Shown: piece after piece, positions 44,712 through 63,560 of the stretch
Layout of the letters: each line of letters opens with the position of its first letter
Position numbering within the stretch: the stretch's first letter is position 1
From: an uncultured Phycisphaerales bacterium
GTDB lineage: Bacteria; Planctomycetota; Phycisphaerae; Tepidisphaerales; Tepidisphaeraceae
Direction: 5' to 3'
DNA length: 64,000 nucleotides
Assembly: GCA_963844715.1 (NCBI GenBank)
Contig: CAWJPJ010000007.1
Span: 832,001-896,000, forward strand
Program-made: the position numbers and the translations under genes
The notes under the pieces: generated by a model
What the model was told of the DNA's origin: nothing
Seen by the model: the letters and a program-made list of their open reading frames with translations, nothing else
The model's database searches: none

Positions 44712-45686
44712 CTACTCCCGTTCGATTCGGACCACTTCCTGGGGCGATTCGCCCAGGCGCAGCTCGGCCTTTTGGATCACCTGATCGACGATGTAGTAGT
44801 TGCCTCGCTGGCGGTAATTGACGAGCTGCGCATCGCCTTTGCGGCTGAGCACAAACAGAGGGGGCGCTTCCTTGGCGTCCAAACTTGCGGGAAAGGCGAT
44901 AAAGGTCTTGTGACCGTCGGTGAAGACGCGCAAAGGCATCCAGTCGGGCGTATCACCCTTGGCGCGGATGGTGTAATCAAAATCCATGTCCGCCAGATTC
45001 ACCGCCGGGTCGATCAGCATCCGGCTCAACTGGTTCTGCTGCTCCTGGTCGTCAGCAAGCTGGCGGGCAAAATCGGCCGGATAGGTCCACTGGACGGCGG
45101 AGTGGTAGACGCCGGCAAGGCTTTGCAAATCGATCTGGTAGACCCGGCGGTCCGTGCATAAGACCAAGTTGGTTTGAAGGTCCGGCTTGAGAGGCTTGAT
45201 GAGCACCAAGGTCTGAATGCCATTCCCGCCGCCACTGTGACTGTCGCCGACCAGCCACTGCGCGGTGTCTCCGCAGACTTTGGAGATCAGTTGCTCTCCC
45301 GGCTCCAGCAGGATGGTCGTCACGTGACCGGGGCTGGCGATGACCTGATAGACCATGCCTGATACAAAGTCATAGGTCTGGGCCGCCTGGATAAAGCCCT
45401 CTTCCGTGGGCCGCTGAGCAGCGCCGCGTGTGGCGTCGGCGATCACCTGCCCAGCGCTTGGCTGTGAGGCGGCGACCGGGCGAATATCCGGCAGTCGCCG
45501 CCACTGCGGGACGGCCACCGGCACTGCCACCTCTTTGACGATAGGCGGCGGTGGCTCGGTGAGGCGATTGGCCTCCAGGTAGACCGTCTGCGGCGGCGGC
45601 GAACTGCTGCACCCGCCCAGCATCGCTGCGGCGGCGAGCCATATATATGTTGTATGGAAAGAACCCTTCTGATTGATCTGTTTCAT
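44712..45686 (-). CDS. trbG: TrbG/VirB9
   Basis: Lipoprotein-like signal (LGGC), GDTAQW, TNLVLCTDRRVY, PLRVFTDGHKT, PPLFV, LVNYR. Confidence 0.92.
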   Translation of the reverse strand: MKQINQKGSFHTTYIWLAAAAMLGGCSSSPPPQTVYLEANRLTEPPPPIVKEVAVPVAVPQWRRLPDIRPVAASQPSAGQVIADATRGAAQRPTEEGFIQAAQTYDFVSGMVYQVIASPGHVTTILLEPGEQLISKVCGDTAQWLVGDSHSGGGNGIQTLVLIKPLKPDLQTNLVLCTDRRVYQIDLQSLAGVYHSAVQWTYPADFARQLADDQEQQNQLSRMLIDPAVNLADMDFDYTIRAKGDTPDWMPLRVFTDGHKTFIAFPASLDAKEAPPLFVLSRKGDAQLVNYRQRGNYYIVDQVIQKAELRLGESPQEVVRIERE

Positions 45687-45734
45687 GATGTGCTCCGGAT
45701 AAACATGCGATTAAAGTGAAAAGATCTGTAGCTC

Positions 45735-46430
45735 TTAATTGTTCCCGGCAAACTCCTGGCTCCACGTGAAACTGGTGACGTAAACGCCTAGGGGATTTTG
45801 AAAGATAGCTCGGGCGGTTTTGGGCGGCACGATCCTGGTGGTGAACAGACCGGTCCAATAGCTGACCGTGGAGCGGGCGCCATTTTCAAAGGCGGTTTCC
45901 CTCCACGCGCACCTGGTAGCTGGCGTCGGAGCGCTGAAGGACGCTGACGATCTCGACGGACATGGTCACATCCTGGTTGGCGGGATCGGCCAGGCCCGCA
46001 TGTGCGCCGTACTCGCTCATGGTCGTGACGGCATCGCCGGCCAGATAGTGATAGGCTTCCTCCCAGTTCTCCTTGAGCACGACTGGATCGGAAGGGCGTG
46101 AGCGCACCTTCCGCACCAGCTCCGCTAAGTGAAAAGCGATCTGGGCGCTGGTAGGAGTGTAGCCGCGATCCAGAAGCTCAACCTGGCCGATCAGCGCCCC
46201 TGCGGGTCCACCTGGGCGACATAAGCTTCGATCCGCGTGCGGCTGGATTGATAGAGCAGGCCAATCGTCAGCACACCGCTGAGGCCAAAAGCGGCGAAGG
46301 CCATCATCCGCCAGTTCTCCGCTTGCACCTGGGCTGAGCCGATGCGCTGGTCCCACGCCTGCCCCGCGAGCGCAAAGGGGGACTGTTCGACTCCGTGTGA
46401 CTGATAGCTGCGCGTTTGTTTTTTGAACAT
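45735..46430 (-). CDS. trbF: TrbF/VirB8 (2 frameshifts)
   Basis: WDQRIGSAQVQAENWR, SDPVVLKENWEEAY, SYQV, NPLGVYV. Confidence 0.88.
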
Positions 46431-46458
46431 GTGCGATTCCTTTGTTGAAAAAAACTTC

Positions 46459-47480
46459 TTATTTGCCATCCGCTTTGGGCGCGCGCCGGCCGCGGTGACG
46501 GACGCACCGGCGGCGACCACGGCGCCGCCCCCTGTAAACATCGAAGCTGCTTTCATCGCGCCCCAGCGCATCGCTTGACCGGCATAGGGCGCGCCCTTCT
46601 TGGCCGCGTCGATGGCGGTTCCCGCGGCATACGCGCCAGCCCCACCGGCCATGACGGCCCCTCCCATGCCGTCGGCGGCCAGACTGGGCGAGCCCGAGAC
46701 CAAATCCGAGCTCATGGAGGTGGCCATGCGGGCCAGGAGCAGCAGCGCCACCGCGCCGATCGCCGCGGCGGTCGCCTGACGGATGGTCAGCGCGTCGGCG
46801 GGGACGGCAGTGACCTGCTGCACCAGATTCAGCCCCAGCGCCATCACCAGGGCGAGAACCATGAGCCTTACGCCGCTGGCGATGAGCCAGCCGATGGGGC
46901 GCTCGGCCAAAAATGCCGTCTTGCTGAGCAGCGCCGTGGGCAGGAGCACGAACGACGCCAGCGAGCCGGCCTTGAACTGCACCAGCGCGAGGAATATCTG
47001 GAACGCCAACATGGCGAAGGCGATGAAGTAAACGAGTGCCGCCAACTCGATGATCATGATCTGCGGCAGGTTCTCGAAGGTGGCGCGGATGCCGGTCAGC
47101 TTGGTCGCCGCCATGATCATGTTCCACGCTCCCGACCAGCCGATGGCGACGACCTGGCCGGGGTTGTAGAACTGCTGGGTGGTGATCGAGGAATTCCCCG
47201 CCTTCATCCCCAAGCTCACAAAACCCTGGCCGACGGTGTTGATCAGCGAGGGCCAGTTCATCACCAGCCAGGCGAAGAAGCCGATGTAGAGGAATCTTCG
47301 CGCCAGCGCCGAGAGCACTTCCTCCTGGCTCAAGGCCCAGGTGAGTCCCGCCAGGGTCAGATTGATCAGCAGTAGGGTGGCGAAGAGCCAGTAGACGTCC
47401 CCCTGGATCAGACCGAAGCCGTGGTCGATGAAGTTGAGCGTGTGCTGCAAAACATCGTTGAGGACATTGCCTTCATCCAT
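46459..47480 (-). CDS. trbL: TrbL/VirB6 (3' end approximate)
   Basis: FIDHGFGLIQGDV, LYIGFF, TAFLAERPIG, many TMs, Gly/Ala-rich tail. Confidence 0.9.
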
Positions 47481-47513
47481 AAATGCTCCTTCGCTCCACG
47501 GAGACCTGGGAAC

Positions 47514-48308
47514 TCAATTTCCAAACGGTTCGGTAACGGGCGCTACGTCGTAGGTGGTCTGGGCGTCTGAGGTGGCGCGGTTGACCAGTTCCTGGTTCCG
47601 CACGTATTCGGCGGATTCTTCGGACTGCTGCAAGGCCAGCGATCGCTGCGTTGCCAGTTCCGCCGCCTGCTGGTCTTGAAGTTGGGCGCTGAGGGTGACG
47701 AGCATCTCGTTGGTCGCCTGGATCGCCGCCGTTTCACCCGGCGCGTTTTGGCTCGCCGTGGCGAGATCACTCATACGCTGTTGCGTGCCGCTCATGGACG
47801 CCACCGACGCCTCCTGCATCTGAATGGCCTTGGCCGCCGCGCCGCGCGCCGCAGAGTTCCACTGGTCGGGGTACTGGGCGATCTGTGTGTCGGACTGGCC
47901 TCGCCAGTCCTGGGGAGCGGGATAGGCGTCGCGGATCAGTTGCGCGATCAATCCGCAGTTGAAGGCCGCGGTGAAGCCGATGGGGTCGGTCGAGCCTTCG
48001 CTTTGCATCTCGCCGCAGAACTGCTGGAGGGTCTGCTGAATCTGCTCCATGATCCCCACCGCCTGCTGGGCATTGGAGATGCTCAGGTGCTGGAGCATGC
48101 GGCTTTCGTTCTGAAGGGATTGGATCTGGTTCTGAATCTGCTGGACCTGGTTATCGATCTCCTGAGCCTGATGCGCCAGTTGCTCGATCAGCAGCGTCCC
48201 ATTGGTCGGGTCATAGACGATCCACTGGGCTTTGGCCCGCGAGGCCAGAATCAAAGGGAGCAGAAACGACCCCGCAAGGACGATATTGCGAATGAAGTTC
48301 TTACTCAT
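47514..48308 (-). CDS. trbJ: TrbJ/VirB5-like
   Basis: Signal peptide, IVYDPTN, NQVQQIQNQIQSLQNE, SQNAPG..AIQATNE. Confidence 0.88.
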   Translation of the reverse strand: MSKNFIRNIVLAGSFLLPLILASRAKAQWIVYDPTNGTLLIEQLAHQAQEIDNQVQQIQNQIQSLQNESRMLQHLSISNAQQAVGIMEQIQQTLQQFCGEMQSEGSTDPIGFTAAFNCGLIAQLIRDAYPAPQDWRGQSDTQIAQYPDQWNSAARGAAAKAIQMQEASVASMSGTQQRMSDLATASQNAPGETAAIQATNEMLVTLSAQLQDQQAAELATQRSLALQQSEESAEYVRNQELVNRATSDAQTTYDVAPVTEPFGN

Positions 48309-48311
48309 GGT

Positions 48312-50772
48312 CTACTCCTTCGTAGTTGAGATTTGGGAACCTGGACTATTCACACTGTCGAGCAGCGCCGCATCCACTCCCCGCGCGGTAAGGAACCGCC
48401 TGGCAAATTCACTCCGCGGGCAGTCGCGGCAGAATCTTTCCGGCGAGCGTGCGGTCACCGTGGGAACTGGCGGCGCACACCGCCAGGGCTACGGGACTTA
48501 ATCCAAGCTCAAAGAGGCGGTCCCCGTCGCGGCTTTGGTAGTAGTAATCGCGTTTGGGGGCTGCGGAGGCGAGGATGCGAAGCTGCTGCTCGCTGAGGCC
48601 AAAGGCTTCATAGACCCGCCGCACGGCCGGCTCCATCGCCCGTGCGTTGGGCAGGAAGATGCGCGTGAGGCAGTTTTCAATCAGCGCCGGCGCGATGGGC
48701 GAGTCGGCGATGTCGCTGAGGCTTTGGGTGGCGAAGACGACGGCGACGTTGCGCTTGCGCAGGACCTTGAGCCATTCGCGGATTTTGGAGGCAAACAACC
48801 CATCCGCCAGAAACACCCACGCCTCATCGAGCACGAGGAGCGTTGGCCTTCCCCCTGTCTCCTCGGCGGCAAAGCGCTCTTCCAGACGATGAAACAAATA
48901 AGTCAGCACCGCGGCGGTGGCGGCTTTGCTCTGCATCAACTGCTCGGTCTCAAAAGCTTGCCAGGTTCCGCGATTCAGTTCGTCTTGATTGGCGTCCAGC
49001 AAGTGGCCGTAAGGCCCTTGCAACGTGTAGCGCCGCAAAGCTTCCTTGGCGGCGCGGTGCTGTAAGAGATTGGTGAAGCTGCTGAGTGTCCGATCTCGCA
49101 CCTCGCTGGCGCCCAGCAGTTCCAATACACGCCAGAGCTCTTCCTTGAGAATTGGATCAGCCTTGACGCCCTCGCGCTCCAGGATGTCGAGGAGCCATTC
49201 CTGCGCCCAGAGCGCTCCGGCGGCTCATGCACGCGCGCCAGTGGCTGAAAGCTCAAGCCTCCTTCGGTCGCGCCAAGATCGTAGTAATCGCCGGCGGCGG
49301 CGAGCGTCAGCACCTTAAAGCTTCCCCCCTTGTCAAAGAAGTAGACCTGCGCCTGCGGGTATCTTCTCCACTGGCTGGCCAGGAAGTTGAGCAGCGTGCT
49401 CTTGCCCGCCCCGGTGGGGCCGCAGACCATGGTGTGGCCGACGTCCCCCTGGAACAGCGACAAACGAAACGGCGTAGCGCCCTTGGTCTGAGCTTGAAGG
49501 AGTACCGGGCCATTCAGGTGCTCGCATCGCCCCGGTCCCGGCCATACGCTGCTGAGAGGGATCAGATCGCAGAGATTCAGCGAGCCGATCACCGGCCTTC
49601 GCACGTCGGCGTAGGCATGACCGGGAAGAGAGCCCAGCCACGCCTCCACCGCGTTGACCGTTTCGATCTTGGAGACCAGCCCCACGCCGTCGATCACGCG
49701 CTGCACCGCCGCCGCCTTCTGATGGGCCTGATGAAGATCGCTGTCCCAGACCGTGACGGTGAGGGTCAAATACCCATAGCTGCACAGGTCCGCGCCAGGT
49801 ATTGCATTGCCTCATCGGCATCGTGCGCCTTGTTGACGCTGTCGCTGTCTTCCAGCGTGGAGGCTTCCTTGGTGATTGTCTCTTTCAGCAGCGAAGCGAG
49901 GCCCTTGCGCTTGGCGAACCACTGGCGGCGCAGGGAGGCCAGGAGCTTTTCAGCATTGGTCTTGTCCATGGGAAGCCAGCGCACGACCCAGCGATACGGC
50001 AGAGGGAGTTGATTCAGGCCGTCCAAAAGTCCCGGCATGGTGCGGTGGGGGTAGGCGCGGATGCTGACGGTCTGGAGATAATCATTGCCAAGCTTTGGCT
50101 CGAATCCTCCGGCTAAACAATCGTCGGTCAGCATCTCATCCAGGTAGAACGGCACGGGCGGGAGCTCGATGTGCAAGTGCCGGCGCGTGGAGACGCACTG
50201 ATGCAAATAGGTCAGCAGGTCGCTTTCAGCGAGCTCCAAAACCAGCGGCATAAAGGAGCGCAGGAGGCCGCCGATCTGGTCCACCTGCGCAGGAAACCTT
50301 CCAGTTCCCGATGATAGTCAAGTCCGCGCAACTGCGCCGCGGACTCGACAAACAGATCGCGCCCACCGGCCAGGCGCTCCTCGGGTGGCAGGTAGGTCAG
50401 AACCAGGGCGTGATCCGATTCAAAATGCGTCTGGTCCGCCTCAAAACTTTTTCGCCGCTCGGCTTCGATCGCTGCGGTGACGGGATCGGGGAATACTGAG
50501 GTCGGGTAATCCTGGCTGGGGCGGCGATGGGCTTCGACGTGCAGGCACCAGCGCGAACCCAGGCGCTTGAGCGCATTGTTCATTCGCGCCCGCACCGCGA
50601 TGAGCTCGTGATCCGAGCAGCTGTCCAAATCCGGCCCGCGGAAGCGATACGCCGCCAGGAATGAGCCATCTTTGTTCAGGACGACGCGCGGGTGAATCAG
50701 GGCCGCCCAGGGGAGGTAGTCACTGAGCTTTTTGCCTTTGCGGCGATATTCGGAGATGTTAAACATGAGCAT
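48312..50772 (-). CDS. trbE: TrbE/VirB4 ATPase (about 4 frameshifts)
   Basis: LPWAAL, NKDGS, GPDLDS, Walker A GPTGAGKS, FDKG, Walker B LDEAW, FATQS; C-terminus rebuilt to TAG at 48312-48314. Confidence 0.93.
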
Positions 50773-51062
50773 CAACCTTCCAAATGAGCGGGCAAACGAA
50801 TCTGACGGCGGAACACGTCCAGCCACAGCGGATCGGCCTTGGTCAGCGCCACCGCCGCCGCGTGCATCGCCAGCCCCAGGGGTACTCCCAGCCACCAAAC
50901 CTGCAAGCCCAAGGACAGGGCCGCGGCCATCGTGCCGTTGAGGATCGCCACGGGTCGGGGCACGCCTCCCATAAGCACCGATTGCGTCAGGGAAATGCTC
51001 AGGGGGATCTCGAAACCTTCGGGCTTTTCCTGATGAAGCGAACTGGTGGCGAGGGTTTTCAA
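50772..51062 (-). CDS. trbD: TrbD/VirB3
   Basis: GFEIPL..SLT..LMGGVPR..ILNGT, DP; TTG start overlaps the trbC stop. Confidence 0.88.
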   Translation of the reverse strand: MKTLATSSLHQEKPEGFEIPLSISLTQSVLMGGVPRPVAILNGTMAAALSLGLQVWWLGVPLGLAMHAAAVALTKADPLWLDVFRRQIRLPAHLEG

Positions 51063-51376
51063 AACGTCAGCCCTCCGGTGAACCCGAAGAAGGTCAGGCC
51101 GAACTGCGCGGCGGCGAAGGCGATGGACAGGCCCAGGACGACCCCCAGTACCCGGCGCAGGGTGCTGCCCCCCTCGCTGAACGCGAAGGCGAAGCCGACC
51201 GAGACAATGGCCAGCACTCCCAGGCCCTTGGCGACAGGGCCGGTGAGGCTTTGGACGATCTGGTCCAGAGGCCCCTCCCAGGGCATATCGGTGCCGGCGG
51301 CGAAGGCGGCGCTGGGGACAGCCAGCGCCATTCCTGCCGCGACTGCCATCAGCAGGCGAGAAGATCTGTGTTTCAT
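51059..51376 (-). CDS. trbC: TrbC/VirB2 pilin
   Basis: Signal peptide, MPWEGPLDQIVQSLTGPVAK, GLSIAFAA. Confidence 0.92.
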   Translation of the reverse strand: MKHRSSRLLMAVAAGMALAVPSAAFAAGTDMPWEGPLDQIVQSLTGPVAKGLGVLAIVSVGFAFAFSEGGSTLRRVLGVVLGLSIAFAAAQFGLTFFGFTGGLTF

Positions 51377-51629
51377 GATGAAACTCCTCGTTAAAGTTCA
51401 CGTCATATGGCCCACCTGTCAGCGCACCTGAGCCAGTTGTTAGGAATGATGAGCATGAAGCGCGCGCCGTCGCGCGCAAGATCGGCGCGAAGTGACGGCG
51501 ATTTGAGTTGCGGGATCGTTGCGCTCTCGCGCTTCTCTAACGATGAAAGTGGCGCCACATATCGGGGGAGTGGGGATCGGGGAGAGGGGTCAAACCCCTC
51601 TCCCCGGCGCGGTTTCACACAATATATAT

Positions 51630-51672
51630 ATAGAAAGGCAGCCGGATCGGAATTCAAATCCGATCCGGCTGC
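51630..51672 (-). terminator. Probable intrinsic terminator after parB
   Basis: Perfect 14-bp stem GCAGCCGGATCGGA/TCCGATCCGGCTGC (51638-51672) followed on the - strand by CTTTCTATATAT. Confidence 0.6.
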
Positions 51673-51700
51673 TGCACTTCATCGGCTGACAACGATGTCG

Positions 51701-53179
51701 CTATGCCCCCGGCGTTTGCTCCTGGTTCCGGGCCTCTGGCTCCTCCCGCAGATTGGATGGCAGCCATGCGTTGAGCTTCGCCGCCAGCTTGGCATCCTCC
51801 ACGCGTCCTTCGGCGGCATCGGTAAACAGCTTGGCAAGCTCCGAAACGAGCTCCGATTTCTTCTTGTTCTCGGCGGCTTTTGAATAGACCGGACCGCGAA
51901 ACTCGCCGATCAGGTGGGCAAGTTGAATCTTCTGGTATCCCGCCAGCCACTTCTCATCGGGACGCCAGTAGCGGCGCACTTCCACGCCCAACTCGACGGC
52001 CAGACGCCAGACCAGTTCCGTTCGGCGTTGCAGGTGGACCGTGATGCACTCGACCGTCAGAAGATCGATCAGCGCATCCAGCTTCTTCTCGGATAGGCGC
52101 TTCACGGCCTCGTAAGCAACATGATCCTCGACGTAGTGCTGGTCATGCAGCGGGTCCAACTCAACCCGACGCTTACGGAGGATGTCGAGCGCCATTGACG
52201 CGAAGCCTTCGGCTCGGTCGGCGTGAACGGTCGTCCCGTTCGCATCATGCCGGATCGAAAGCGCCTCGCTACGCACCTTGTCATGCAGTATCAATGCCAA
52301 AACACGTCTGCAAACTCGGCCGTCTTTGAGCAGAAGTTCGCGGACGGCCAACGCCTGATGCGTGAACGTCGCGGCAAGCTGTGGCTCTTTCAGGTCATCC
52401 GAAGTCGGCGGCTTCGGTGCGACGTGTCCATTGCCCCCATGAACGCCATTGCCCGATGCGTTGCGACGGTTTCGCGGGATACGGTATTCACGTCGCACCC
52501 GACCATCCGGGTCGAGCAACAAGAACGCCGTGCCAACGGCCTTCGTCGCCTCGGCGTAGTGAACCTCGGCATCCTCGGTTAAGGTCTGTCCCTCGTCGTC
52601 CAGCGTTTCCAGCTTCGTCTGAACGTCCTGATATGCCTTTTGCTCCGACTCGCTGAACTCGCCGGGTCCGGCTTCTAGTTCCGCGATCTTCGCCTCCAGC
52701 TTGCTCCGTTTGTGCGCCAGCTTTTCGAGCTTGGCGGTGGTCTGCTGGTCGTACTCCTGCGGCGCATCAGCCATCGAAAATAGCCGATCCTGCACGTCGG
52801 CCTGCGGACCAACCACAACGTCGCCCCAACCTTCCTCGATCAGCTTTTGCCGCTCGGCCAAAAGCGCTTCAGCCTGCGCCTCCATGAACGCCTTGCGCTC
52901 GATCAGCACGCGCTCGGCAAACAGGTCTTTGCTGACGGCGGATTCCGGCAACTTCGACACGTCGAAGGTGGCGGACTTGGCGTCGATCCACGCGTGGGCA
53001 ATCACGTTGCGGACGTGCTGTGCATGCTCTGGGTTGCTGCCGACTTCCTGCCAGACTTCCAATTGACGATCCGCCGGAACGGACGCGAACGCCTCGGCGG
53101 TCGCGGTGTCGATTTCACCTTGGCGGTACGCGGCCTTCACCGGATCGGCCAGAGTTGCCAGCTTCATGCGCTGGCGCAC
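51701..53179 (-). pseudogene. parB: ParB-family protein, C-terminal part (interrupted by RIT1)
   Basis: Begins VRQRMKLATL, second helix of the ParB HTH; joins in frame to 56831-57286. Confidence 0.88.
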
Positions 53180-53265
53180 TTATGTGTTGAGTATATTTAT
53201 GTTGTCAGATCACACCAACCAGTGGCTTCCCTGGACGCGATAGGCTGTTGTGACCACATAATTTT

Positions 53266-54279
53266 TTACAATGCCTGCAAGAACTCCATCAGTTTTGGAT
53301 TGGCTTTCCATGATTTGCGTTTGGACGACCTTGGCCCAGTGAGCTCGCATGTGGCGAGCATTTTTGCTTTGGTTTCCAAGTCGATCTCGGCGTACACGTT
53401 GGTCGTATTGATTGACACGTGACCGAGCCAGGCGCGAATGGTGTTGATGTCCACGCCAGCGCGCAGTAGATGTGTTGCGGTGGTGTGGCGGATCGTGTGC
53501 GGCCCGACTCGCTTCCTGGCCAGCGTTGCGACTTTCCTGCTGGCCGCGTCGACGTGCCGCGACACCAACGCATGAACGCCGAAACGTGTGAGCGGCTCGC
53601 CGCGTTGGTTTAAGAACAGTTTTTCGCCTTCGGCGCGGTTGTCAGCCAGTTCCTTGAGCTTGTCGATCGTCGTGGGCCAGAGCGGACAAAATCGAGTTTT
53701 GTTCCCCTTGCCAACCAAGCGCACCGATCCGGCGCCATCGGCGCGGCGTTCGATATCAGCCAGCGTCACCGCAACTGCCTCGCTCACGCGGGCGCCGGTG
53801 TTGTACAAAAACAGCAGCAGTGCATGATCGCGGCGACCAATCTGGCGCGCAACATCCGGCGCGGCGATCAGAGCGTCAATCTCCGGCTTATCGAGATAGC
53901 ACAGCGCCGGTCGATGGAACCGCTTCGATGGAATAACCCGGATTGCCGAGCACCAGGCGATGTGTTCGGGTGCATGGTCGGCGACAAAGCGAGCGAAGGC
54001 GTGGATGGCGGCAAGCCGCTGGTTGCGAGTACGTATGGTGCATTTGCGCTCTGATTCCAGGTGTGACAAAAAGCTTCGCAACCGATCAGGCGAGAGCGCA
54101 TCGACTGTCAGGCGATCCACCGCCGCACCTGTCTTCTTGGAGACGAAAGGCATCAACTGAGCGAAGGCATCGCGATAACTGCGCTGTGTGTTGCGCGATA
54201 AATTGCGTTCGGCAACCAGATGTTCCAGAAGGAAACGGCGAATCCACGTACCCAGTAAAACGCTTTTTTGTGTCATCAT
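53266..54279 (-). CDS. ritC: RIT1 recombinase C
   Basis: RTRNQRLAAIHAF, YNTGARVSE, GKGNKTR, HTIRHTTA, WLGH..TTNVY. Confidence 0.92.
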   Translation of the reverse strand: MMTQKSVLLGTWIRRFLLEHLVAERNLSRNTQRSYRDAFAQLMPFVSKKTGAAVDRLTVDALSPDRLRSFLSHLESERKCTIRTRNQRLAAIHAFARFVADHAPEHIAWCSAIRVIPSKRFHRPALCYLDKPEIDALIAAPDVARQIGRRDHALLLFLYNTGARVSEAVAVTLADIERRADGAGSVRLVGKGNKTRFCPLWPTTIDKLKELADNRAEGEKLFLNQRGEPLTRFGVHALVSRHVDAASRKVATLARKRVGPHTIRHTTATHLLRAGVDINTIRAWLGHVSINTTNVYAEIDLETKAKMLATCELTGPRSSKRKSWKANPKLMEFLQAL

Positions 54280-55208
54280 CCTGCCATCGGTAAGGCGTAG
54301 TTGCGGAAGAGAGAGCTTGCCTCCTGGGCCAGTTCGCTGGTCAGTTGCAGATAAACCTGCGTCTCGCGAACGCTGCAATGGCCCAGATACGTCGCCAAGC
54401 GTGGTAGTAATTGCTGAACGTTCTTGCCCGCGCGGTACCAGCTAATCAGCCGGTTCACAGCGAAGGTATGCCGCAGATCATGCAACCTCGGCTGAAAGAA
54501 AAAGCTGGTTGGTCGGCGGATTCCAATCTGTTCGCGCAGGAGCTTGTAGCTGTGTTGCGCGGTCTGCTTGGCAATCCGCCGTCCCGTGCGATCGGTTAGA
54601 AACGGCTTGTCATTGCCGGCGTCGCCGGCGCGATGCTTGCCTTGGTAGGCGATCAGCAGACTGCGCAGGTCAGCGCCGATCGGCACCAGCCGGCTTTTGT
54701 AGAACTTGGTCTGGCGGATGGTAAGGATGCTCGCCCGCAGGTCCACGTCTTCCACATTCAGCGCCAACGCTTCGCTGATGCGAAGCCCGCTGCCATATAG
54801 CAGCAACAGAATCGTTCTCATGGTGGCTGGGCTGAGTAACCAACAGTTGCGATACCGCTGACTGGTCGCTTCCAAGAGCGACTTCATCTCCGCGACCGAA
54901 TAAATGTAGGGAATGAACGACCACTGCCGACGAGGCTTGTCCCGCGGCAACGGAGACGCCGATGCGTACTTGCGGCTGATCGCAAACCGATAAAAACCGG
55001 CCAGGGCATGATACTTGGAGAGCCAATAGTTGGTGACGGGGCCATCTCCATCGAGATAGCGGCGCACTGTTTGAGGAGTCACGCGCCGCAGCTCGACATC
55101 GCCAACGGCTCGGGCAAAGGCGTGGAGCAGGCCTTTTTCTCTGCAAAAACCAATGCCCAGTGATTGGCGGTACTCCACGTAACTGTTAACACAGGCCGAG
55201 ACCTTCAT
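54276..55208 (-). CDS. ritB: RIT1 recombinase B
   Basis: PYIYS, GLRISEAL, TKFYKSRLVP, PRLHDLRHTFAV, LATYLGH. Confidence 0.92.
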   Translation of the reverse strand: MKVSACVNSYVEYRQSLGIGFCREKGLLHAFARAVGDVELRRVTPQTVRRYLDGDGPVTNYWLSKYHALAGFYRFAISRKYASASPLPRDKPRRQWSFIPYIYSVAEMKSLLEATSQRYRNCWLLSPATMRTILLLLYGSGLRISEALALNVEDVDLRASILTIRQTKFYKSRLVPIGADLRSLLIAYQGKHRAGDAGNDKPFLTDRTGRRIAKQTAQHSYKLLREQIGIRRPTSFFFQPRLHDLRHTFAVNRLISWYRAGKNVQQLLPRLATYLGHCSVRETQVYLQLTSELAQEASSLFRNYALPMAG

Positions 55209-55218
55209 TCCTGCTCCT

Positions 55219-56559
55219 TCAGGCTACATAACCACACAGTTGCCGCCGAGCGCATCGCGTCGCGCAAAACCGGTCGGGATGCCGAGAGTGTCGGCGCTCG
55301 CAGGCGGCGTTGAACTCGATCAGTTCGCCCAAATCGACGTCGCCCACCGTCATCAAGCTCGTCATATCCACCTTGGCGTAAATCTCAGTGGACTGAACGA
55401 TGGAGTGCCCAAGATGATCGCCGATCTGTTTGAGGCTGAATCCCTCCGACAACAAATGGGTTGCACAAGCATGACGCAAGCCGTGCGGTCCGTAACGCTT
55501 GAGCTTTTGGCCCAGCGACTTCTGGCGGTCGCAGACGACCGTGGCAGCCGACATCAACGGGCGATAAGGCTGAAGCATGGAAATGAAGACCTCTCTGTGC
55601 CGGCAGATGGGCCGGATCTTCAGATAGGCGACGATGGCATCACCCACGGTGGAAATGAGCGGATAGGTTCCGACACGATGCAGCTTCGGCCGTGGCGGAC
55701 GAATGACCCCATTCTCCCAGTCGATATCTTCCAGGCGCAGGCCGCAAACTTCGCCTGAGCGAAAACCATAAACGGCCATCAACAGCATCATCGCGCGATC
55801 GCGAACGTCGACAGGATCGTTGGTATCGGCTGAATCAAGCAGTTCACGGACTTGTGCCCATGTCGGCCCCTGGGGGTAGCGTTCGTGGCGATAGAGCCGC
55901 GGCGCATGGATGCAGTCCCACAGGGTTGGTTCGCAACCGCGCCGACCGCCGAGCCAGCGCAAGAACACGCGCACGTGACAGATATGGCTGGCGATGGAGC
56001 ACCGCGACCATCGCGTGAACTGTGGTTCCTGTAGATAGCCCGTCAACATTCGCGCGTCGAGCTTCCGCAAATCGCCGCCCGGATGTTTGGCCGCCCAGGC
56101 TAGAAACAGGCCAACGTCGCGGCGGTAAATGCCGACGGTACAGGGCGACCATCCATGTTCGGCGCGCTTGAACTCGATAAAACCCTGCATCAGATCATCG
56201 AAAGGCCCGCGGATGAACGAACGTTCCATGCGTCCGCAAAATGCCAGCCAATGTCTTATCCGGCCCAGGAATTTATGGATGGTGGCGGCCGATGGCTTCC
56301 TACGATGCAAGCCGCCGCGAAAGTTGCCGTCACGCCATTTAGGACCCAACGTGCGCAACTGTTCCTCGTTAACAACCTGTCCAGGCTTGAGGTCCAGCAA
56401 TATGGCAGCATGGAGGGTATATCCAGCAGCATGTTTGAACGTCTCCAGCGCGCGGCCATCTTCGACCAGATGCCGCAGGTAACGTTCCCGTTCCTCGCGC
56501 ATCGGGCTTTCGCGGTGCAACTGCAAATGCTTTCGACGGGTGACAAACTGCTCAAACAT
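55219..56559 (-). CDS. ritA: RIT1 recombinase A
   Basis: RDRAMMLL..YGFRSGEV, GPHGLRHACA, IGDHLGH..TEIYAKVD. Confidence 0.92.
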   Translation of the reverse strand: MFEQFVTRRKHLQLHRESPMREERERYLRHLVEDGRALETFKHAAGYTLHAAILLDLKPGQVVNEEQLRTLGPKWRDGNFRGGLHRRKPSAATIHKFLGRIRHWLAFCGRMERSFIRGPFDDLMQGFIEFKRAEHGWSPCTVGIYRRDVGLFLAWAAKHPGGDLRKLDARMLTGYLQEPQFTRWSRCSIASHICHVRVFLRWLGGRRGCEPTLWDCIHAPRLYRHERYPQGPTWAQVRELLDSADTNDPVDVRDRAMMLLMAVYGFRSGEVCGLRLEDIDWENGVIRPPRPKLHRVGTYPLISTVGDAIVAYLKIRPICRHREVFISMLQPYRPLMSAATVVCDRQKSLGQKLKRYGPHGLRHACATHLLSEGFSLKQIGDHLGHSIVQSTEIYAKVDMTSLMTVGDVDLGELIEFNAACERRHSRHPDRFCATRCARRQLCGYVA

Positions 56560-56830
56560 CGCGGAACAAATCGAGATCGGCTTTGCCCGCTGCTTCGGCA
56601 ATGAGGCGTGGACGATCAATTAGTTATGTTGCGAGTATCGGCGTGGGAGTGGAACAGCATTAGCTGATCGAATGATGGCGCACACGGGATGAATCCAACG
56701 AAAATAATGCTCTTGCCGTAACAGATCAGAAGCGAGAAGGCCCACAGACCACAGGAACATCTCTTACGGCCGAGCACATAACTAAACTCAACACATAAGT
56801 ACGATTATGTGGTGGACAACATAACAAGCC

Positions 56831-57286
56831 ATAGGGCTGGCTGACGCCGAATTCGGCGGCGATGGATTCAACGCCTTTCGCTTCCTCCCGCGCCAACTTG
56901 GCGAAGGCTTCGGCTTCGTCCAGCGGGTGCATCGGCTCCCGGATAAAGTTCTCGGCCAGCGCCAAGGCGTCGGCCGTGTCGTCATCGACGGAACGCAGGA
57001 TGCACGGCACTTTCGGCGGTCGCCCCCCCTTGGCTGAATCCTTAAACACGGCGCAGCGCGCTGCCAGACGGCCATTGCCGACAATCACCCGGTAGCCACC
57101 GGCTACTTTGTCATCGGCGCGGACCACCAGCGGTTGGATCAGGCCAAACGCCCGAATCGACGCGACTTTCTGCCGATGGGCGTCCCGTTCCGGCTTGACG
57201 CGGCGGGGATTCCGCTTGTTCGGAATCAGCTTCGACAACGCAACGGAAATCTGAACACCATGAAATTGAGATAGATTGCGAGTCAT
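56831..57286 (-). pseudogene. parB: ParB-family protein, N-terminal part (ParBc domain plus HTH start)
   Basis: NPRR, SIRAFGLIQPLVV, GNGRLAA, ENFIREPMHPLDEAEAF, IAAEFGVSQPY. Confidence 0.9.
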
Positions 57287-57319
57287 AAAAATAGCTCTCT
57301 GTCGATAAAGTTGAATGAA

Positions 57320-57556
57320 TCAAATACCTTGTTGGCCTTTCGCCGGCGCGTCGGGGTTGCCGACACGGACCTCAACGCGAGGCCCATAGCGGTACACGTC
57401 CACGGTCATTCGTCCGTCCTCATGCTGGACCAGACTGATCAGACCGCCGTTGCCGCCGCCGCCGACAAATTCGACGATCCGCTCGCAGGGAGCGGCATAG
57501 TGATTGGCAACACAATTCTTGATGACACGGGGCCTTTGCTGCAATGGCTGGCACAT
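57320..57556 (-). CDS. Small hypothetical protein
   Basis: 78-aa ORF filling the gap between ssb and parB on the same strand. Confidence 0.5.
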   Translation of the reverse strand: MCQPLQQRPRVIKNCVANHYAAPCERIVEFVGGGGNGGLISLVQHEDGRMTVDVYRYGPRVEVRVGNPDAPAKGQQGI

Positions 57557-57568
57557 GGGACACCTCGG

Positions 57569-58030
57569 CTAAATCGGAATATCCCGGCCCGCGCGGGCAA
57601 ACTCGCCTTGGGCGGGCTGCTCTGGTCTGGCGCTCTTGGCATTGTTTCGGCGCTGACCACGCCCCTTGCGTTCGGCGGGTGGACCGTTGCTGCCCGGCTT
57701 GCGATCGACAAACCGGAACTGTTCGACAACCACGCGAATCTTGCTGCGCCGCTGGCCGTCTTCCTGTTCCCACTGTTCCAGCCGCAAGCGGCCTTCGATG
57801 TGGATCGGGCGTCCCTTGGTCAAGCTCTCGCCGATAGTCTGCCCTGTCTTGCCGAAGGCGGAACAGTCGATAAATAGCACGTCCTCACGGTCGCCACCCT
57901 TAGCATCTTTCCACCGGCGATTGACCGCCAGTGAGAAATCGCAAACCCGGGTATCGGAGTTGGGCAGCGCCTTTAACTCCGGGTCCCGCGTCAGGTGTCC
58001 CATGAGGATCACCTTGTTGTAGTTGGCCAT
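57569..58030 (-). CDS. ssb: Single-stranded DNA-binding protein
   Basis: NKVILMGHLTRDPEL, FSLAVNR, KGRPIHIEGRL, C-terminal DIPI; AAGGAGA RBS. Confidence 0.95.
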   Translation of the reverse strand: MANYNKVILMGHLTRDPELKALPNSDTRVCDFSLAVNRRWKDAKGGDREDVLFIDCSAFGKTGQTIGESLTKGRPIHIEGRLRLEQWEQEDGQRRSKIRVVVEQFRFVDRKPGSNGPPAERKGRGQRRNNAKSARPEQPAQGEFARAGRDIPI

Positions 58031-58139
58031 GATGAATCTCCTTGTGTAAATGGCCACTGATGAGTGCGGCGTCACCGTGACAACCGCTCCCAGCCCGCCC
58101 CGGCGAAACACAACCGGGATGGGTTCGGGAGGGGTTGGC

Positions 58140-59262
58140 TCAGATATCCGTCATTTGGAAATCTTGGACTTCCCCGCCTGTGCCTTCGCCTTCTGCGGCG
58201 GAGGCTTTGGCTTCGATGGCCAGTCCCAACGCGCTGTAGTAGGCGGCTTGCTTCAATCGGTGCGATGCGCCGAACCAGACGGAATCGAGCCGACGATTCA
58301 GCTTTTCAGCCGGGTTCAATCCCCGGTAATTCCGCTGATGGTCGGCCCATTCGCTCACCGCGTTGTACGCCGCCCATGCGGTGTGCTTCATGCTGGGGAG
58401 CGTGTTCCGCTCGTTATCGAAATTGGCGAGCAACTGACCGAAAACCTTCTCTCGGCTCTTCTTCTGGCGGTCGGTCCCGCCGGGAACATCCGCACCCGCC
58501 AACCCCCGGAAGTAACCCGATGCCTCGGTTACGCTGAGGTCTTTGGCAAGCATCGCGTGAAGTTCTTCGTCAAACTGGTCGAACCGCGCCGCGATGATCC
58601 CTAACTTGGTGCGGGCCTCGGCAATCCGGCTTTCCAACCGGGGATGATGGGAAATGGTCAATCCGTCCATGCCCGCCTCACGCATGGCCAGATTGAGTGT
58701 GTTCTGACAGACCACGCGCACGGTCGTCGGAATCATCCGAAGCGCCTGGCTTCCGTCGTGAGTGTTGGTCAAGAGAACATAGGGCTTAATCAGGTCGTCG
58801 GCTCCGGCCCGGTATTCCCTGGGAATCCTGCGCCAGCATCCACACGCGCTTACCGCCGTGGAGACTGCCCGCCGTCTCGTATATGGCGAGCTTGTCGCCG
58901 ACCAGCGCATCCATAAAATCGAAGGCTTCCCGATTCTGGAATACGCGGTAACGTCTGCCCACCACGCCCAACACCGCTTTCGTATCGGTGCGAACGTTGG
59001 CGACAAACTCCGGTACGTCCACTTCGACAGGCTCAGTGCGGGCCGCCTCCTGACTATTGTTGTCCGGGTCGCTAGTCGCGCGCTCTGCCGAGCGGAAAGC
59101 CCGGACCGGCCATTGCTCTACGTGCCAATCCAACCCGGCGAGGCTGATCGCCTCGGCGCTGGTGGTTGCCTGTTCGATCACTATGCCCAAGCGATGCCAA
59201 GCAGGCTCGCCCGTCACAAAAACTGCCGCTCGTCCGGTTGTCTGGTCGATCTCGTGTGCCAC
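58140..59262 (-). CDS. DUF932-family phage/plasmid protein (frameshift near 58830)
   Basis: PAWHRLG, AGLDW, YETAGSLHGGKRVW, NTHDGS, VRVVCQNTL, TAWAAYNAVSEWADH; GTG start with GGGAGG RBS. Confidence 0.9.
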
Positions 59263-59329
59263 AAGACACCTCCCGAAAAGGAAGAAAAACTCCAAACCGG
59301 GAAGGCGTAGGCCCAAAGCCCACGCAATA

Positions 59330-59375
59330 TTTTTGACCTCCCGGCTTCGGTAGAAGCACGCCGGGAGGTCAAAAA
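59330..59375. promoter_or_regulatory. Perfect 16-bp hairpin upstream of the DUF932-ssb-parB operon
   Basis: TTTTTGACCTCCCGGC-14 nt-GCCGGGAGGTCAAAAA. Confidence 0.55.
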
Positions 59376-59602
59376 CATGAGATCCATCTGGCTGGCGACG
59401 GGAACGCGAGCGCAGCGGACGAAGGGCATGCCACGCGCAGAGGTTGAGAGTTGCATATGTGCGTTTATGTTGAGTTCCGAATTATTTTTGAGTTCGGCGG
59501 AAAATCCCTGCATTTCGGGGGTTCTGAGCAGAATGGCGAAGCGGTTTGCTTCACATAATCCTGATGTCTTTCTTATGCCCATGTGGCGGAAAGGAAGGCG
59601 TC

Positions 59603-60863
59603 ATGTCTCACGATCTGTTTCTTCGATGTGTTCGCAGGCGGATCAGCGGCAATCCACAGGAACCGCTGTTGGAGCGATTCCTGATTTATCTCACCCAGCG
59701 TGGTTACGCTCCGGGAACGTGGTATCGGCTTCTGCGCATTGCCGATCACTTCGGGCGATGGCTTGGCCCTGGACCTTTGACGTACAAGGCGGCGCAGGGC
59801 TTCCTCAAACGCCATTTGCCGAGGTGCCGATGCACAACGCATTCGCTGCGCAGCCTGCAATGCAATCGCGAAGCGCTGCGGCTTTTGCTTGAGATGGCCG
59901 CAATCACGCCGACTCCGTCGCCAGCCCCCATGCATTTTGCGGATCGGCTGCTGGAACAATATGGACAGCACCTGATACAGGCGAGAGGACTCGCGCCGGT
60001 GACTGTCCATCATCGGTTGGATCTGGCCAGGCGAATGCTTCGACAGTTCCGAGTGCGTCAATCATCACAGTTCCGCGCCTGGACGGCCGCTCAGATCCAG
60101 CAATACATCGCGCGAATGGTGCGTCCTTACCAGACGTCCACCGGCCGCGCCATGACTTCAGCGACTCGCTCGTTCCTATGCTATTTACTGCAAAATCGCT
60201 TGATTCGGCGGGATTTGGCCGCGGCGGTTCCCGCATTGGCCCATTGGCGATTAGCGCCCTTGCCCAACACTCTGACAATCAAGGAGATTGAACGGCTCCT
60301 CAGGGCTGTCCGGCAATGCACCCCGCTCAATCTTCGCGACCGCGCCATTCTCCTGTGCATGGTCGAACTGGGTCTCCGGCGCCCCGACGTGACGGGACTG
60401 GAAGTCATCGGGGTGGATCTGGCCCATCGAGTGTTGCGCCTTCAACATCACAAGGAACGGGAGGCGGCGGCAACGCCCATGACCAGCCGACTGGCAGAGG
60501 CGATTGAAGCGTATCTCCGCAAAGGCCGTCCTGCCTGCCAGTCACCGTTCCTGTTCGTCTCGCATCGCGCCCCGGTTGGCAAGCCCTTGTCCACTGCCGG
60601 CCTTGGACACATCGTGCTCAGGATTGCTGGTCGCGCGAGATTGCAGGGCCGCGTCAGGGGCACCCATATATTTAGGCATAGTCTCGCCAGCCGACTGCTC
60701 GCTTCGGGAGGCGCCTTAAACAAATCGCCGACGTGCTGGGTCATCAGTCGATTGAGACAACGATGATTTATACCAAAGTCGATCTGCCGCGCTGATGCAG
60801 GTGGCGTTGCCTTGGCCCGGGGGCGCCAAAGACAAAACCTCCGCCGGGGAGGTGCGGCCATGA
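59603..60863 (+). CDS. ritA: RIT2 recombinase A (2 frameshifts near the 3' end)
   Basis: RDRAILLCMVELGLR, THIFRHSLA; shifted frames give IADVLGH..TTMIYTKVD and VALPWPGG. Confidence 0.9.
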
Positions 60864-61816
60864 CACACCAACTGACGATGGTTCGCCACGCCAGAGCCTA
60901 CCTTGAATACCGCCGCTCCCTGGGCTTTGCACTGCGCGGTCATGGCAGATTGGCGATGCAATTCGCTCGTTTCCTCGATCGCCGCCGTCACGAGCTTCCA
61001 ACGATCGGCCTGATGCTGCGCTGGGTCAATGGAAAGGGAACGCATTCCCAAAGCTATCGCGCCAGTCGTTTAACGGCGGTTCGCAGTTTTGCACGCTATC
61101 TGGCGGCAAGGGATGAACGAATCCCCATCCCGCCCGCCCGACTCTTATCCGTGAGGATTCGGCGCTGTCGGCCTCACATTTACAGCCCGCTGCAACTTGA
61201 GCAGCTGCTGTCCGCTGCCGGGCGGCTGCATCCTCACTTTGCGCTTCGCCCTTTGACCTATCAGACGCTTCTGGGACTGATCGCCGCCACAGGCTTGCGC
61301 ATCTCTGAAGCCATCAGGCTCCAGCGCGGACAGATCGATTTGAAGCGTGGTCTGCTGGAGATTACGCAGACCAAATTCAAAAAGTCACGCCTTGTGCCGA
61401 TGCACCCGACCACAACGCGGGCCTTGCGCCATTACCGCGATAAGCGCGATCAGCAATGGGGAACACGACAGGAAGCACCATTCTTTCTCAACGCCGCAGG
61501 CCGATATTTGCCATCGGAAACGGTACAGGCTGTATTCCGTCGGCTTTGCGAAGGTCTCGGCTGGCATCGGGGCAACGGCGAATTACCCAAACCACGCCTC
61601 CATGACCTGCGCCACAGCTTCGCCTGCCGCCGCCTATTGATCTGGCATCGCAATGGCGACGACATCGGGAACCGCATCGCCGCGCTGGCGACGTACCTGG
61701 GCCATGGCAGGGTCCGGGACACCTATTGGTATCTCACCGGCACCTCGGAACTGCTTGCCATTGCGGGAGACCGCTTCGGACGATTCGCCGATTCGGCAGA
61801 AGGGAGCAACCCATGA
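60860..61816 (+). CDS. ritB: RIT2 recombinase B
   Basis: RRSLGF, PHIYS, TGLRISEA, TKFKKSRLVP, PRLHDLRHSFA, LATYLGH..TYWYL. Confidence 0.93.
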   Translation: MTHQLTMVRHARAYLEYRRSLGFALRGHGRLAMQFARFLDRRRHELPTIGLMLRWVNGKGTHSQSYRASRLTAVRSFARYLAARDERIPIPPARLLSVRIRRCRPHIYSPLQLEQLLSAAGRLHPHFALRPLTYQTLLGLIAATGLRISEAIRLQRGQIDLKRGLLEITQTKFKKSRLVPMHPTTTRALRHYRDKRDQQWGTRQEAPFFLNAAGRYLPSETVQAVFRRLCEGLGWHRGNGELPKPRLHDLRHSFACRRLLIWHRNGDDIGNRIAALATYLGHGRVRDTYWYLTGTSELLAIAGDRFGRFADSAEGSNP

Positions 61817-62826
61817 AAGCCAAGGAACTTATCCCCACGCTTCCACTGGCGCCGTTACTCCAGAACTATTTTTGTTCTCATTTGATCGGCCAGCGCGACC
61901 TGAGCCGGCGGACGATCCATGCCTATCGCGACACATTCCGGCTGCTGCTGAAGTTCCTGGCTCACCGCTTCAAGTTGATGCCCGAAGCATTGCGCGTGAG
62001 TGATCTGGACCCGCCAAGAGTCCTTGCCTTCCTTGATGACCTGGAACAATCCCGTGGCAACGGCGTTCGCACCCGCAACGCCCGGTTGGTGGCGATCCAT
62101 TCCTTCATGCGCTACATCGCATCCGTCGAGCCGTCGTTGTTGAATGTGGCCCAGCGCATTCTTGCGATTCCCGCCAAGCGATTCGATCGCCCATCCATCG
62201 GCCATCTTACGCGCCAGCAGATGCAAGCCATTCTGGACGCGCCTAATGCCGCGACGCGCGGCGGACAGCGCGACCGTCTTCTGTTGATGATGCTGTACAA
62301 CACCGGCGCGCGAGTGTCGGAGGTGGCGGCTCTTCACGTACACGATGTGCGCCTGGATTCCCAAGCCACGGTGCAGTTGCACGGGAAAGGACGGAAGAAT
62401 CGCGCCGTACCGCTGTGGCGTTCGACAACGCGATTGCTGCGGCAGTGGCTCAAGGACACTGGCGCCGCGCCTGAATCCCCGCTGTTTCCCAATGCACGAG
62501 GCGAGCCGATGAGCCGGCATGGCATCGCCCAGCGCTTGGCAACGGCCGTGGCTCGCGCCTCGAAGAAGTTGCCGGGTTTGGGGAACATCCGCGTGACTCC
62601 ACACAAAATCCGGCACTCCACGGCCATGCACCTGCTGCAATCGGGCGTGGATCTTTCAGTCATTGCGATGTGGCTGGGCCACGAACACATCGAAACAACA
62701 CATCAATACCTGGACGCCGATCTGGAATCGAAGAAACAGGCGTTGGCATGCTTGGATTCACCCCGTCTGCACCGGTATCGCCGCTCTGCGCCCAAACCGC
62801 TCCTTCAGTTCCTGGAAGGCCTGTGA
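61813..62826 (+). CDS. ritC: RIT2 recombinase C
   Basis: RTRNARLVAIHSF, YNTGARVSE, GKGRKNR, TPHKIRHSTAMHLL, WLGHE..TTHQY. Confidence 0.93.
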   Translation: MKAKELIPTLPLAPLLQNYFCSHLIGQRDLSRRTIHAYRDTFRLLLKFLAHRFKLMPEALRVSDLDPPRVLAFLDDLEQSRGNGVRTRNARLVAIHSFMRYIASVEPSLLNVAQRILAIPAKRFDRPSIGHLTRQQMQAILDAPNAATRGGQRDRLLLMMLYNTGARVSEVAALHVHDVRLDSQATVQLHGKGRKNRAVPLWRSTTRLLRQWLKDTGAAPESPLFPNARGEPMSRHGIAQRLATAVARASKKLPGLGNIRVTPHKIRHSTAMHLLQSGVDLSVIAMWLGHEHIETTHQYLDADLESKKQALACLDSPRLHRYRRSAPKPLLQFLEGL

Positions 62827-63560
62827 TTATGTTGAGCCATCATGCACGAGAACCCCCGAAATGCAGGGATTTTCCGCCGAACTCAAAAATAATTCGGAAC
62901 TCAACATAAACGCGCAGGCCCGCAGCGCTGTACTCAGCGTGAGGAACCGAGCATGGCAAGGCCGTACTCGGCCGGTGGCGTTTCGATAGCGGAGTCGAGC
63001 TAGACGTGCTGCGTAGGCCCGCTGCATCTGGTCCCGGCGCGCGCGGGGGCCTTTCAACAACTTAGCGGGCCTACCCTCCACCCCATGTTCCCGGCGCCAT
63101 CCTTATTGTTTCCGACAGTCATCACACCGGATTGACGGCCAAGGAGAGGAGGTGCGGAGGAGAGGACCGGCCTGAGGTCCTCTTCTCTGCATTCGCATTT
63201 CTTTATTTATAGAATGGCAAGCAGGGGCGTTTCTCTCGGTCGATAGTCTTGCGCTGTAATGGATATATGGCCGGTTTTAGCGTCGGGTCAGGAGAGCGTG
63301 ATGGTCACGACTTCCATCCCCTACGGTGTACCAAATGGCAGTGGACGCCGTATACCGCATTTTGCGGGTTGAGCTTGGATGCCGATTCTCGAAAAGTTTT
63401 TTTTAATCCAAGGGACGGCGGTCGCATTAATCTCCTAAAATCTCCAAGTAGTAACAGCGGCTGTATTGATATTGCCCTCCTCATCATGCTACGCCGGGTT
63501 GCTGTCAAGTGAACTGATTCATTGCGCATGCGGCCGCACTGTCCCGAAAGGAGACTCATC

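Follow-up and report, generated by a model that had tools for sequence, protein, structure and literature searches.

A 64,000-nt stretch of DNA from an uncultured Phycisphaerales bacterium (GTDB lineage Planctomycetota; Phycisphaerae; Tepidisphaerales; Tepidisphaeraceae; GCA_963844715.1, contig CAWJPJ010000007.1, positions 832,001-896,000, forward strand), hereafter the window, contains two RIT elements, RIT1 and RIT2, each with a 20-bp sequence (20-mer) between two 6-bp slots outside one inverted repeat of the core that carries ritA, ritB, and ritC. Comparison of occupied and empty sites shows that this 32-bp module is element DNA that travels with the element, and that the mobile unit is the core together with the 20-mer and the two 6-bp slots. 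Our best model, to which we give a probability of roughly 0.75, is that the element would move as a circle with two equivalent crossover slots, either of which is used alone, leaving footprints like those of Tn554 and the SE elements; this is a well-supported yet unproven mechanism. The sequences themselves establish the unit and its length, its placement at either end, the fixed target arm, the shared orientation of 20-mer and core, and which 6-mers are native and which carried, whereas we infer the circle, a bias between the strands, the succession of events, and any division of labor among RitA, RitB, and RitC. A preliminary description of this DNA had laid out the 6+20+6 blocks of both elements, and all were present as written.

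Both elements lie inside a Trb-type conjugative element, where RIT1 (minus strand) interrupts a parB-like gene and RIT2 (plus strand) occupies a non-coding stretch upstream of a DUF932 gene. Among 20 parB loci, the junction was located in 13, and all 13 intact homologs read Pro/Xaa-Tyr-Val-Arg-Gln at this point, with one 6-mer and no 20-mer. The 17 empty RIT2 sites in other genomes carried ACGCGC (14 sites), ACGCAC (2 sites), or another 6-mer (1 site), with the 20-mer present in 0/17. These counts include two loci from the unpublished genome G004, i.e., parB locus L002, the nearest match to the flank of RIT1 copy D described below, and RIT2 locus L057; without G004, the counts are 12 and 16. 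At the RIT2 site, one contig of run X1 skips exactly 3477 bp, equal to the core plus 32 bp; since X1 is possibly the source sample, its contigs are not independent evidence. The preliminary description had assigned the module to the element rather than to the target, which the empty parB and RIT2 sites confirm; the empty RIT2 site that it predicted exists, e.g., at L055, and the extra length at the module end, anticipated there as 26-32 bp, is 32 bp. No orphan 20-mers were found in the genome of the window (G000).

G000, an 85% complete metagenome-assembled genome with indel errors, harbors four copies of RIT1 (W, in the window, and B, C, and D) and two of RIT2 (W2, in the window, and E), which are >99% identical and located at different sites. 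Read in the gene direction, copy W consists of the parB 5' arm, GGCTTG, the 20-mer, TCGTAC, the core, GTGCGC, and the parB 3' arm; copy D consists of the reversed parB 3' arm, GCGAAC, the core, GTGCGC, the 20-mer, TCGTAC, and the reversed parB 5' arm; and copy B, in a non-parB gene, consists of GTGCGC, the 20-mer, GCGCAC, the core, and GGCTTG. Likewise, the three blocks of the RIT2 module precede ritA in W2 and, with their order unchanged, follow ritC in E. The arrangement of both pairs, W/D and W2/E, is consistent with one circle, core-x-20-mer-y, opened at x or y, i.e., with circular permutation. Because W and D are in different target genes, as are L164 and L326, the permutation accompanied a move. 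Placement of the module at the ritA end, as initially described, therefore holds only for the two window copies, as sister copies in G000 carry it at the ritC end. The degenerate RIT2 20-mer, a tentative assignment at first, proved to be the true counterpart of the RIT1 20-mer, as it moves and turns with the core in the copy at C8:832800-836278; the orientation of the RIT1 20-mer relative to the core is constant in 3/3 copies possessing it. At least two related Trb-type conjugative elements (window 44700-59316; G000:C8:831500-845000, L255) each carry a RIT1 in parB and a RIT2 upstream of DUF932, and both RITs of the L255 element are in the opposite placement to those of the window element.

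A RitB alignment and profile search yielded 80 genome loci (the best 80 of 351) and 79 viral-collection loci (the best 79 of 129), and 12 loci from relatives were added to give a total of 171. The trio was present in 157 of these and a TTATG-anchored inverted repeat in 111; removal of 11 loci with short flanks, 2 with weak repeats, and 3 duplicates left a survey set of 95 RIT loci, which are related to one another and were delimited with an end-finder that detects TTATG-type RITs only. With the module defined as a TTATG-N10-CATAA 20-mer, one mismatch per half permitted, the 20-mer was found exactly 6 bp outside the core in 80/95 loci (42 at the ritA end, 33 at the ritC end, and 5 at both), while the next commonest combination of spacing and length was observed only twice. 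Given that such a 20-mer occurs at 4/40,989 background flank positions, the 6+20 spacing, which the preliminary description had proposed to look for in other RITs, is not due to chance. A module tied to ritA was rejected, since 33/75 single-module loci have it at the ritC end. A scan of viral contigs with a single protein gave no matches, and no close copies of RIT1 or RIT2 were found in 300 relatives.

The same picture emerged from genomes and plasmids with multiple copies (67 loci), in which 49 loci with ends comprised 22 with the module at the ritA end, 23 at the ritC end, and 4 of other types, one of them a double module. Identical copies in either placement on the same target arm were detected in G306 (5+5), G309, G308, G302, G305, G313, and S. 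meliloti pSymA, and in all of the multi-copy sets compared, the 20-mer is next to one particular arm of the target. Where both placements occur, the direction of an asymmetric 20-mer with respect to the core is constant in 7/7 sets (RIT1, RIT2, G306, G308, G313, S. meliloti pSymA, and Acidiphilium), and the daughter that L164 was predicted to give is matched exactly by G302 copy L326. It might be argued that the module is target DNA or a metagenome-assembly artefact, given the incompleteness of G000, the indel errors in ritA, and the location of copy C at a contig start. We consider the chance of this negligible: the 20-mer is absent from 30/30 empty sites, the same design is found in finished isolate plasmids of Acidiphilium, Bradyrhizobium, Sinorhizobium, and Sphingobium, and these empty sites and isolate records already refute it.

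Those survey targets to which a name could be given belong to the conserved genes of other mobile elements, namely parB, an ardC-like gene, an IS66 transposase gene, and a serine-recombinase-like gene, and radC has been reported as a further RIT target (PMC2864759). The polygalacturonase-like gene that houses copy B is off this pattern. A single Vicinamibacterales chromosome (G306:C1; L276-L295, L321-L325) has 29 ritB matches, among them two sets of copies with identical scores, 11 for one RIT and 7 for a second; in the 11-copy RIT, flanking DNA recurs from copy to copy, as if inside another mobile element.

We compared the 6-mers at loci with unlike outer and core-side 6-mers for which the native one could be recognized. 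In 7/8 such tests, which are few and not fully independent, the core-side 6-mer was native and the outer one carried. At the copy B junction, 7/9 intact paralogs of the polygalacturonase-like gene read Gly-Leu and 0/9 Val-Arg; hence the core-side GGCTTG of copy B is native, and its outer GTGCGC is parB DNA (Val-Arg). The outer GGCTTG of W encodes Gly-Leu, found in 0/13 parB homologs and expected at the copy B site. W and B thus carry reciprocal footprints, the outer 6-mer of each representing the target codons of the other. In addition to W and B, the core side was native in D (3/13 versus 0/13 homologs), in E (a weak case), in Acidiphilium L340/L341/L345 compared to the near-exact empty allele L344, in Bradyrhizobium L339/L342 compared to L343 (no empty allele, core side constant), and in Sphingobium L257 compared to the near-exact empty allele L348. 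No empty allele for L173 was found in 150 genus genomes, and L349 and L352 offered no usable junction.

A chain leading from B through an unseen ritC-end copy in a parB paralog to W and then to D would account for every 6-mer. The left end of C retains the junction predicted for the unseen copy; an X1 contig places the ritA end of the core on the parB 3' arm with GTGCGC, as predicted for the parent of B; and four single-nucleotide polymorphisms (SNPs) in the core group W and D versus B and C, in agreement with the footprint lineage. Two further observations concern these sites: tandem polygalacturonase-like genes with PEP-CTERM-like tails lie at G000:C7:1348146-1358449 (L253), the third being split by copy B, and a loose end before 53178 in run X1 marks a further RIT1 insertion site outside the assembly (core, GTCAAC, unrelated DNA).

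In the mechanism we propose, excision would connect the naked end of the core with the outer 20-mer half, generating a circle with the junction core end-x(6)-20-mer-y(6)-other core end. The 20-mer is made of two 10-bp units back to back, and the same unit is present twice, 17 bp apart, in each core end; a 20-mer half matches its own core end at 8.0/10 positions and other cores at 6.9/10. Since the core ends form inverted repeats and the 20-mer is itself palindromic, the junction would present two equivalent tyrosine-recombinase sites back to back, and a 6-bp overlap is consistent with enzymes of this type. One site, x or y, would recombine with a polar target, with the 20-mer half always joining the upstream (U) target arm and the freed core end joining the D arm; use of x would leave the module at the ritA end, whereas use of y would reverse the core and leave the module at the ritC end. 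The exchange would likewise be polar, such that the slot 6-mer ends outside the 20-mer and the target 6-mer beside the naked core end, from which the next excision would take it up into a slot. Each copy would thereby record its last crossovers in two slots. On the U side, the outer and target 6-mers agree at positions 1-2 in 26/29 cases, versus 10-15/29 at positions 3-6, a 2-bp homology signal that is confounded by codon constraint in the target genes (the ArdC His codon).

Both 6-mers had been described initially as crossover positions, used in two steps or as alternative sites. The data support alternative sites; joint use in one integration is unsupported, as one slot is passed on unchanged. 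Two-step use would require different recombinases to cut both positions during a single integration, the 20-mer serving as an intermediate scaffold. While two crossover positions do exist, 26 bp apart, and all three proteins retain His-Leu/Ile-Arg-His plus the tyrosine, in the traceable pairs (W to D, W2 to E, L164 to L326, and L311 to L312) one slot becomes the target junction and the other is inherited unchanged inside, and a single crossover explains all products; we thus regard two-step use as very improbable. Another account dispenses with the free circle, in that the core and, separately, the 20-mer would be inverted in place and movement would proceed by another route, e.g., via hairpin or cointegrate intermediates. 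Consistent with this, both orientations occur at orthologous sites (Bradyrhizobium L339 versus L342/L343), L138 shows that the 20-mer and the core can be inverted relative to each other, and the accessible part of PMC5737581 reports that no free circle was found. However, inversion of the core only would reverse the 20-mer relative to the core, and the two are co-oriented in 7/7 informative sets; W/D and L164/L326 sit in different target genes; and transfer of a 6-mer from the far end of the core to the end bearing the 20-mer requires the two ends to be joined. In-place inversion is thus a poor prospect, and movement through a circle with two slots is preferred.

Several observations weigh against this preference. 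By the strict rule, 15/95 loci lack the module. When these were inspected by eye, 2 were boundary mis-calls and 2 were unclear, and 9 of the other 11 had the same target arm at both sides, with 18-30 of 32 bases complementary, like copy C, which has no 20-mer and has parB 3' arms at both sides. Copy C corresponds to G000:C8:1774-5404 (L254), where the 3' halves of two different parB paralogs flank the core. Such module-less cores and the double-module copies (5/95 plus L276 in the multi-copy set) may be reciprocal recombinants of two oppositely placed copies; the reciprocal product of copy C was not found in the assembly. No repeat was detected in 46/157 trio loci of the survey and 18/67 of the multi-copy set, many of them incomplete, and RITs with other ends fall outside the survey. 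The RIT2 20-mer pairs at only 6/20 bases, yet junctions occur at both of its sides, a difficulty if each half has to be bound in the manner of a core end, and the 20-mer of L138, the third G313 copy, is reversed compared to two sister copies. One core SNP groups W with C, which, together with the indel errors of the assembly, makes the SNP support soft. The run contigs contained no circle junction, contigs being the only run data examined, and in the accessible part of PMC5737581 the mobilome coverage of RITs was raised and circles were not mappable.

The 6-mer data are also mixed. The exceptional test, Sphingobium L256, has an outer 6-mer that matches 4/4 usable empty homologs; this could be explained, after the fact, by an excision that left a swapped 6-mer behind and a later re-integration. 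Moreover, the outer and core-side 6-mers are the same, and their source uninformative, in 46/75 single-module loci, of which 18/75 have a different inner 6-mer and 28/75 have all three 6-mers the same. Repeated landing on one conserved target would give three identical 6-mers; since the module then resembles a 32-bp palindrome, the slots were probably hidden from notice. L256, which contradicts the polarity, and the 18 loci above, which mixed inheritance could also yield, are compatible with a Tn916-like two-strand exchange, in which the slots would be heteroduplex coupling sequences, either allele could appear at either junction, and the polarity would be a small-sample effect. This alternative shares the two-slot circle and differs in the strand step only; as 7/8 tests point in the same direction, with the reservations given above, we find it unlikely, at about the level of an outside chance worth keeping in mind.

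As for the recognition of targets, TTATG-like half-sites in the target arms were rejected, with means of 1.2 and 1.0 of 5 matches over 59 loci. Because the target arms are unlike the 10-bp unit, other binding specificities would be needed, and this is the only link to why three recombinases are present; the earlier suggestion that the module helps explain the need for three is unsupported, as no test here shows it. Targets acting as single-strand hairpins were unconvincing, with folding z-scores of +0.1 to -2.3 at five RIT2 sites and -0.6 to -1.2 at two parB sites. Partial rank correlations were 0.17 for RitC with the 20-mer and with the core end and 0.06 for RitA with the target arms (1703 non-independent pairs), which is no more than a hint of RitC acting on element sites. 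Three RIT1 target types share G[TG]NNNN followed by RTGA 6 bp later, too few for a consensus.

In both window elements, the three genes are adjacent and co-directional in the order A-B-C, with a 4-bp ritB/ritC overlap in each, and PF00589 is found in all six frames; gene order was assigned by size and by cross-similarity between RIT1 and RIT2 (B-B, 36%; C-C, 41%). RIT1 encodes RitA of 446 aa (from ATG), RitB of 310 aa, and RitC of 337 aa. An HxLRH or HxIRH/HxFRH motif, LGH, and a downstream Tyr are visible in all three proteins, which are predicted to be catalytic, and the core contains no fourth gene besides these three simple recombinases of 310-446 aa. The inverted repeats measure 28 bp in RIT1 (89% identity) and 68 bp in RIT2 (99%). 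The RIT2 ritA has two 1-bp gaps in the assembly (60710 and 60787) and encodes 433 aa in the sister copy; its frameshifts are assembly errors, as the extra bases are present in contigs of 4/4 runs and in the sister copy. Altogether, both elements are ordinary RIT elements, the parts of which are listed in Table 1.

Table 1. Parts of RIT1 and RIT2 and of their targets, in window coordinates
Feature	Coordinates	Strand	Description
RIT1 outer 6-bp slot GGCTTG	56825..56830	-	Putative crossover of the present insertion; foreign to parB; same as target 6-mer of copy B
RIT1 20-bp imperfect palindrome	56805..56824	-	Two abutting TTATG-type 10-bp units; 16/20 bases pair; element-borne
RIT1 inner 6-bp slot TCGTAC	56799..56804	-	Reverse complement of parB codons beside the core of copy C8:1780
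RIT1 core, 3619 bp	53180..56798	-	Ends are inverted repeats carrying TTATG units at offsets 0 and 17
Native parB 6-mer GTGCGC (Val-Arg) at naked core end of RIT1	53174..53179	-	Val-Arg in 13/13 intact homologs
parB-like gene, 5' part (ParB_N, PF02195)	56831..57286	-	Its end is the target arm always joined by the 20-mer
parB-like gene, 3' part	51701..53173	-	Target arm joined by the naked core end
RIT2 outer 6-bp slot ACGCGC	59433..59438	+	Identical to the target 6-mer
RIT2 degenerate 20-mer	59439..59458	+	6/20 bases pair; element-borne; at ritC end in sister copy; absent from empty sites
RIT2 inner 6-bp slot GTGCGT	59459..59464	+	Reverse complement is the target variant in 2/17 empty sites
RIT2 core, 3445 bp	59465..62909	+	68-bp near-perfect inverted repeats; ritA; ritB 60860-61816; ritC 61813-62826
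Native RIT2 target 6-mer ACGCGC	62910..62915	+	Conserved non-coding site upstream of DUF932 gene; 14/17 empty sites

Conserved non-coding DNA upstream of DUF932/SSB/parB (59300-59432 and 62916-63100), which contains a variable hairpin insert and recurs in many family members, serves as the RIT2 target. Nine bases of the RIT2 20-mer (59440-59448) match the reverse complement of the loop of this variable hairpin, approximately 35 bp downstream of the target, in some alleles (L056, L068, and the copy E flank), which may be chance. Two runs show a 1-bp difference at 58829, which lies within the split DUF932 gene.

The RIT family and its inverted repeats are known (PMC3414803, PMC2864759, PMC8138268), and the window elements resemble published RITs in having ritA-ritB-ritC in one direction, a length of about 3.5 kb, terminal inverted repeats, and insertion into genes of mobile elements (PMC3414803, PMC2864759). 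According to these two accounts, the ends do not fit the usual recombinase sites, and their accessible parts contain neither the 6+20+6 spacing, the placement at either end on a fixed target arm, nor the carried 6-mers; palindromic RIT ends of 47 and 51 bp, for which hairpins were proposed, are described in PMC5737581. Mobile integrase cassettes (MICs) of B. longum, with three contiguous integrases, an inverted repeat, and a conserved 20-bp palindrome with a variable extension, have been in print since 2008 (PMC2430713), and a 20-bp palindrome beside three B. longum MIC integrases is also reported in PMC5412050; the MIC account is descriptive in its accessible part, where crossover slots, a circle, and a footprint are not proposed (PMC2430713). 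Our literature search found no published description of the two-slot reading, with Ricker 2013 outside its reach. That paper and a thesis reportedly treat a 20-bp palindrome, orientation relative to the target gene, and DUF1738 targets, and the part on palindrome and orientation may be in print; the MICs we take to be RITs. The family is known, the feature is real, and the 20-bp palindrome is already published.

SE elements and Tn554 move via a circle with a one-slot, 6-bp footprint, in which 6 bp acquired from one end of the donor site reappear at the opposite end when the element next inserts (PMC10214605). This circle is strand-biased, no empty site is left in the donor, and for SEs the circle junctions are reported to carry almost exclusively the core-side 6-mer. 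RITs are alike in that 6 bp pass from one donor flank to the opposite end of the new insertion, as in the 7/8 tests above. In contrast, SE/Tn554 have one crossover slot and one orientation per target, whereas in RITs a 20-mer would be flanked by two slots and the core, being symmetric, could land either way round; moreover, the RIT gene set differs from IntA/Tfp/IntB/Srap of SE and TnpA/B/C of Tn554, so RITs would work like these elements without being a member of the group. Tn916 and CTnDOT also carry non-homologous 6- to 7-bp overlaps from the donor to the new site, using a single integrase with an arm-binding domain, Xis, and a heteroduplex joint, with no 20-bp spacer; the RIT data lean to one-sided inheritance rather than such a joint.

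RITs are widespread, and they are described as never having been transposed in the laboratory, their target specificity and movement being given as "not tested" in the accessible part of PMC10214605 (Table 1 therein). The anatomy described here sets the real ends 32 bp beyond one inverted repeat; hence a construct trimmed to the repeats would be missing something it needs. From the same anatomy follow predictions of the precise circle junction, of two products for each target, and of the destination of each 6-mer; it also allows insertion events among copies to be ordered by their 6-mers and accounts for gene-splitting rearrangements with the same target arm on both sides of the core. More tentatively, and with the odds against us, RITs could constitute a distinct class of tyrosine-recombinase transposons, with a two-slot attachment site in which a 20-bp spacer separates mutually exclusive crossovers and a symmetric element that lands either way on a polar target; copies would store their last two landing sites, the unused inner site would stay live and may rearrange host DNA to give module-less and double-module cores, and RitC would act on TTATG half-sites and the other two proteins on the target arms. 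If the trio does divide its work in this way, target choice would be reprogrammable by swapping one gene, and if copies do store their last two landing sites, insertion histories would be readable from genomes.

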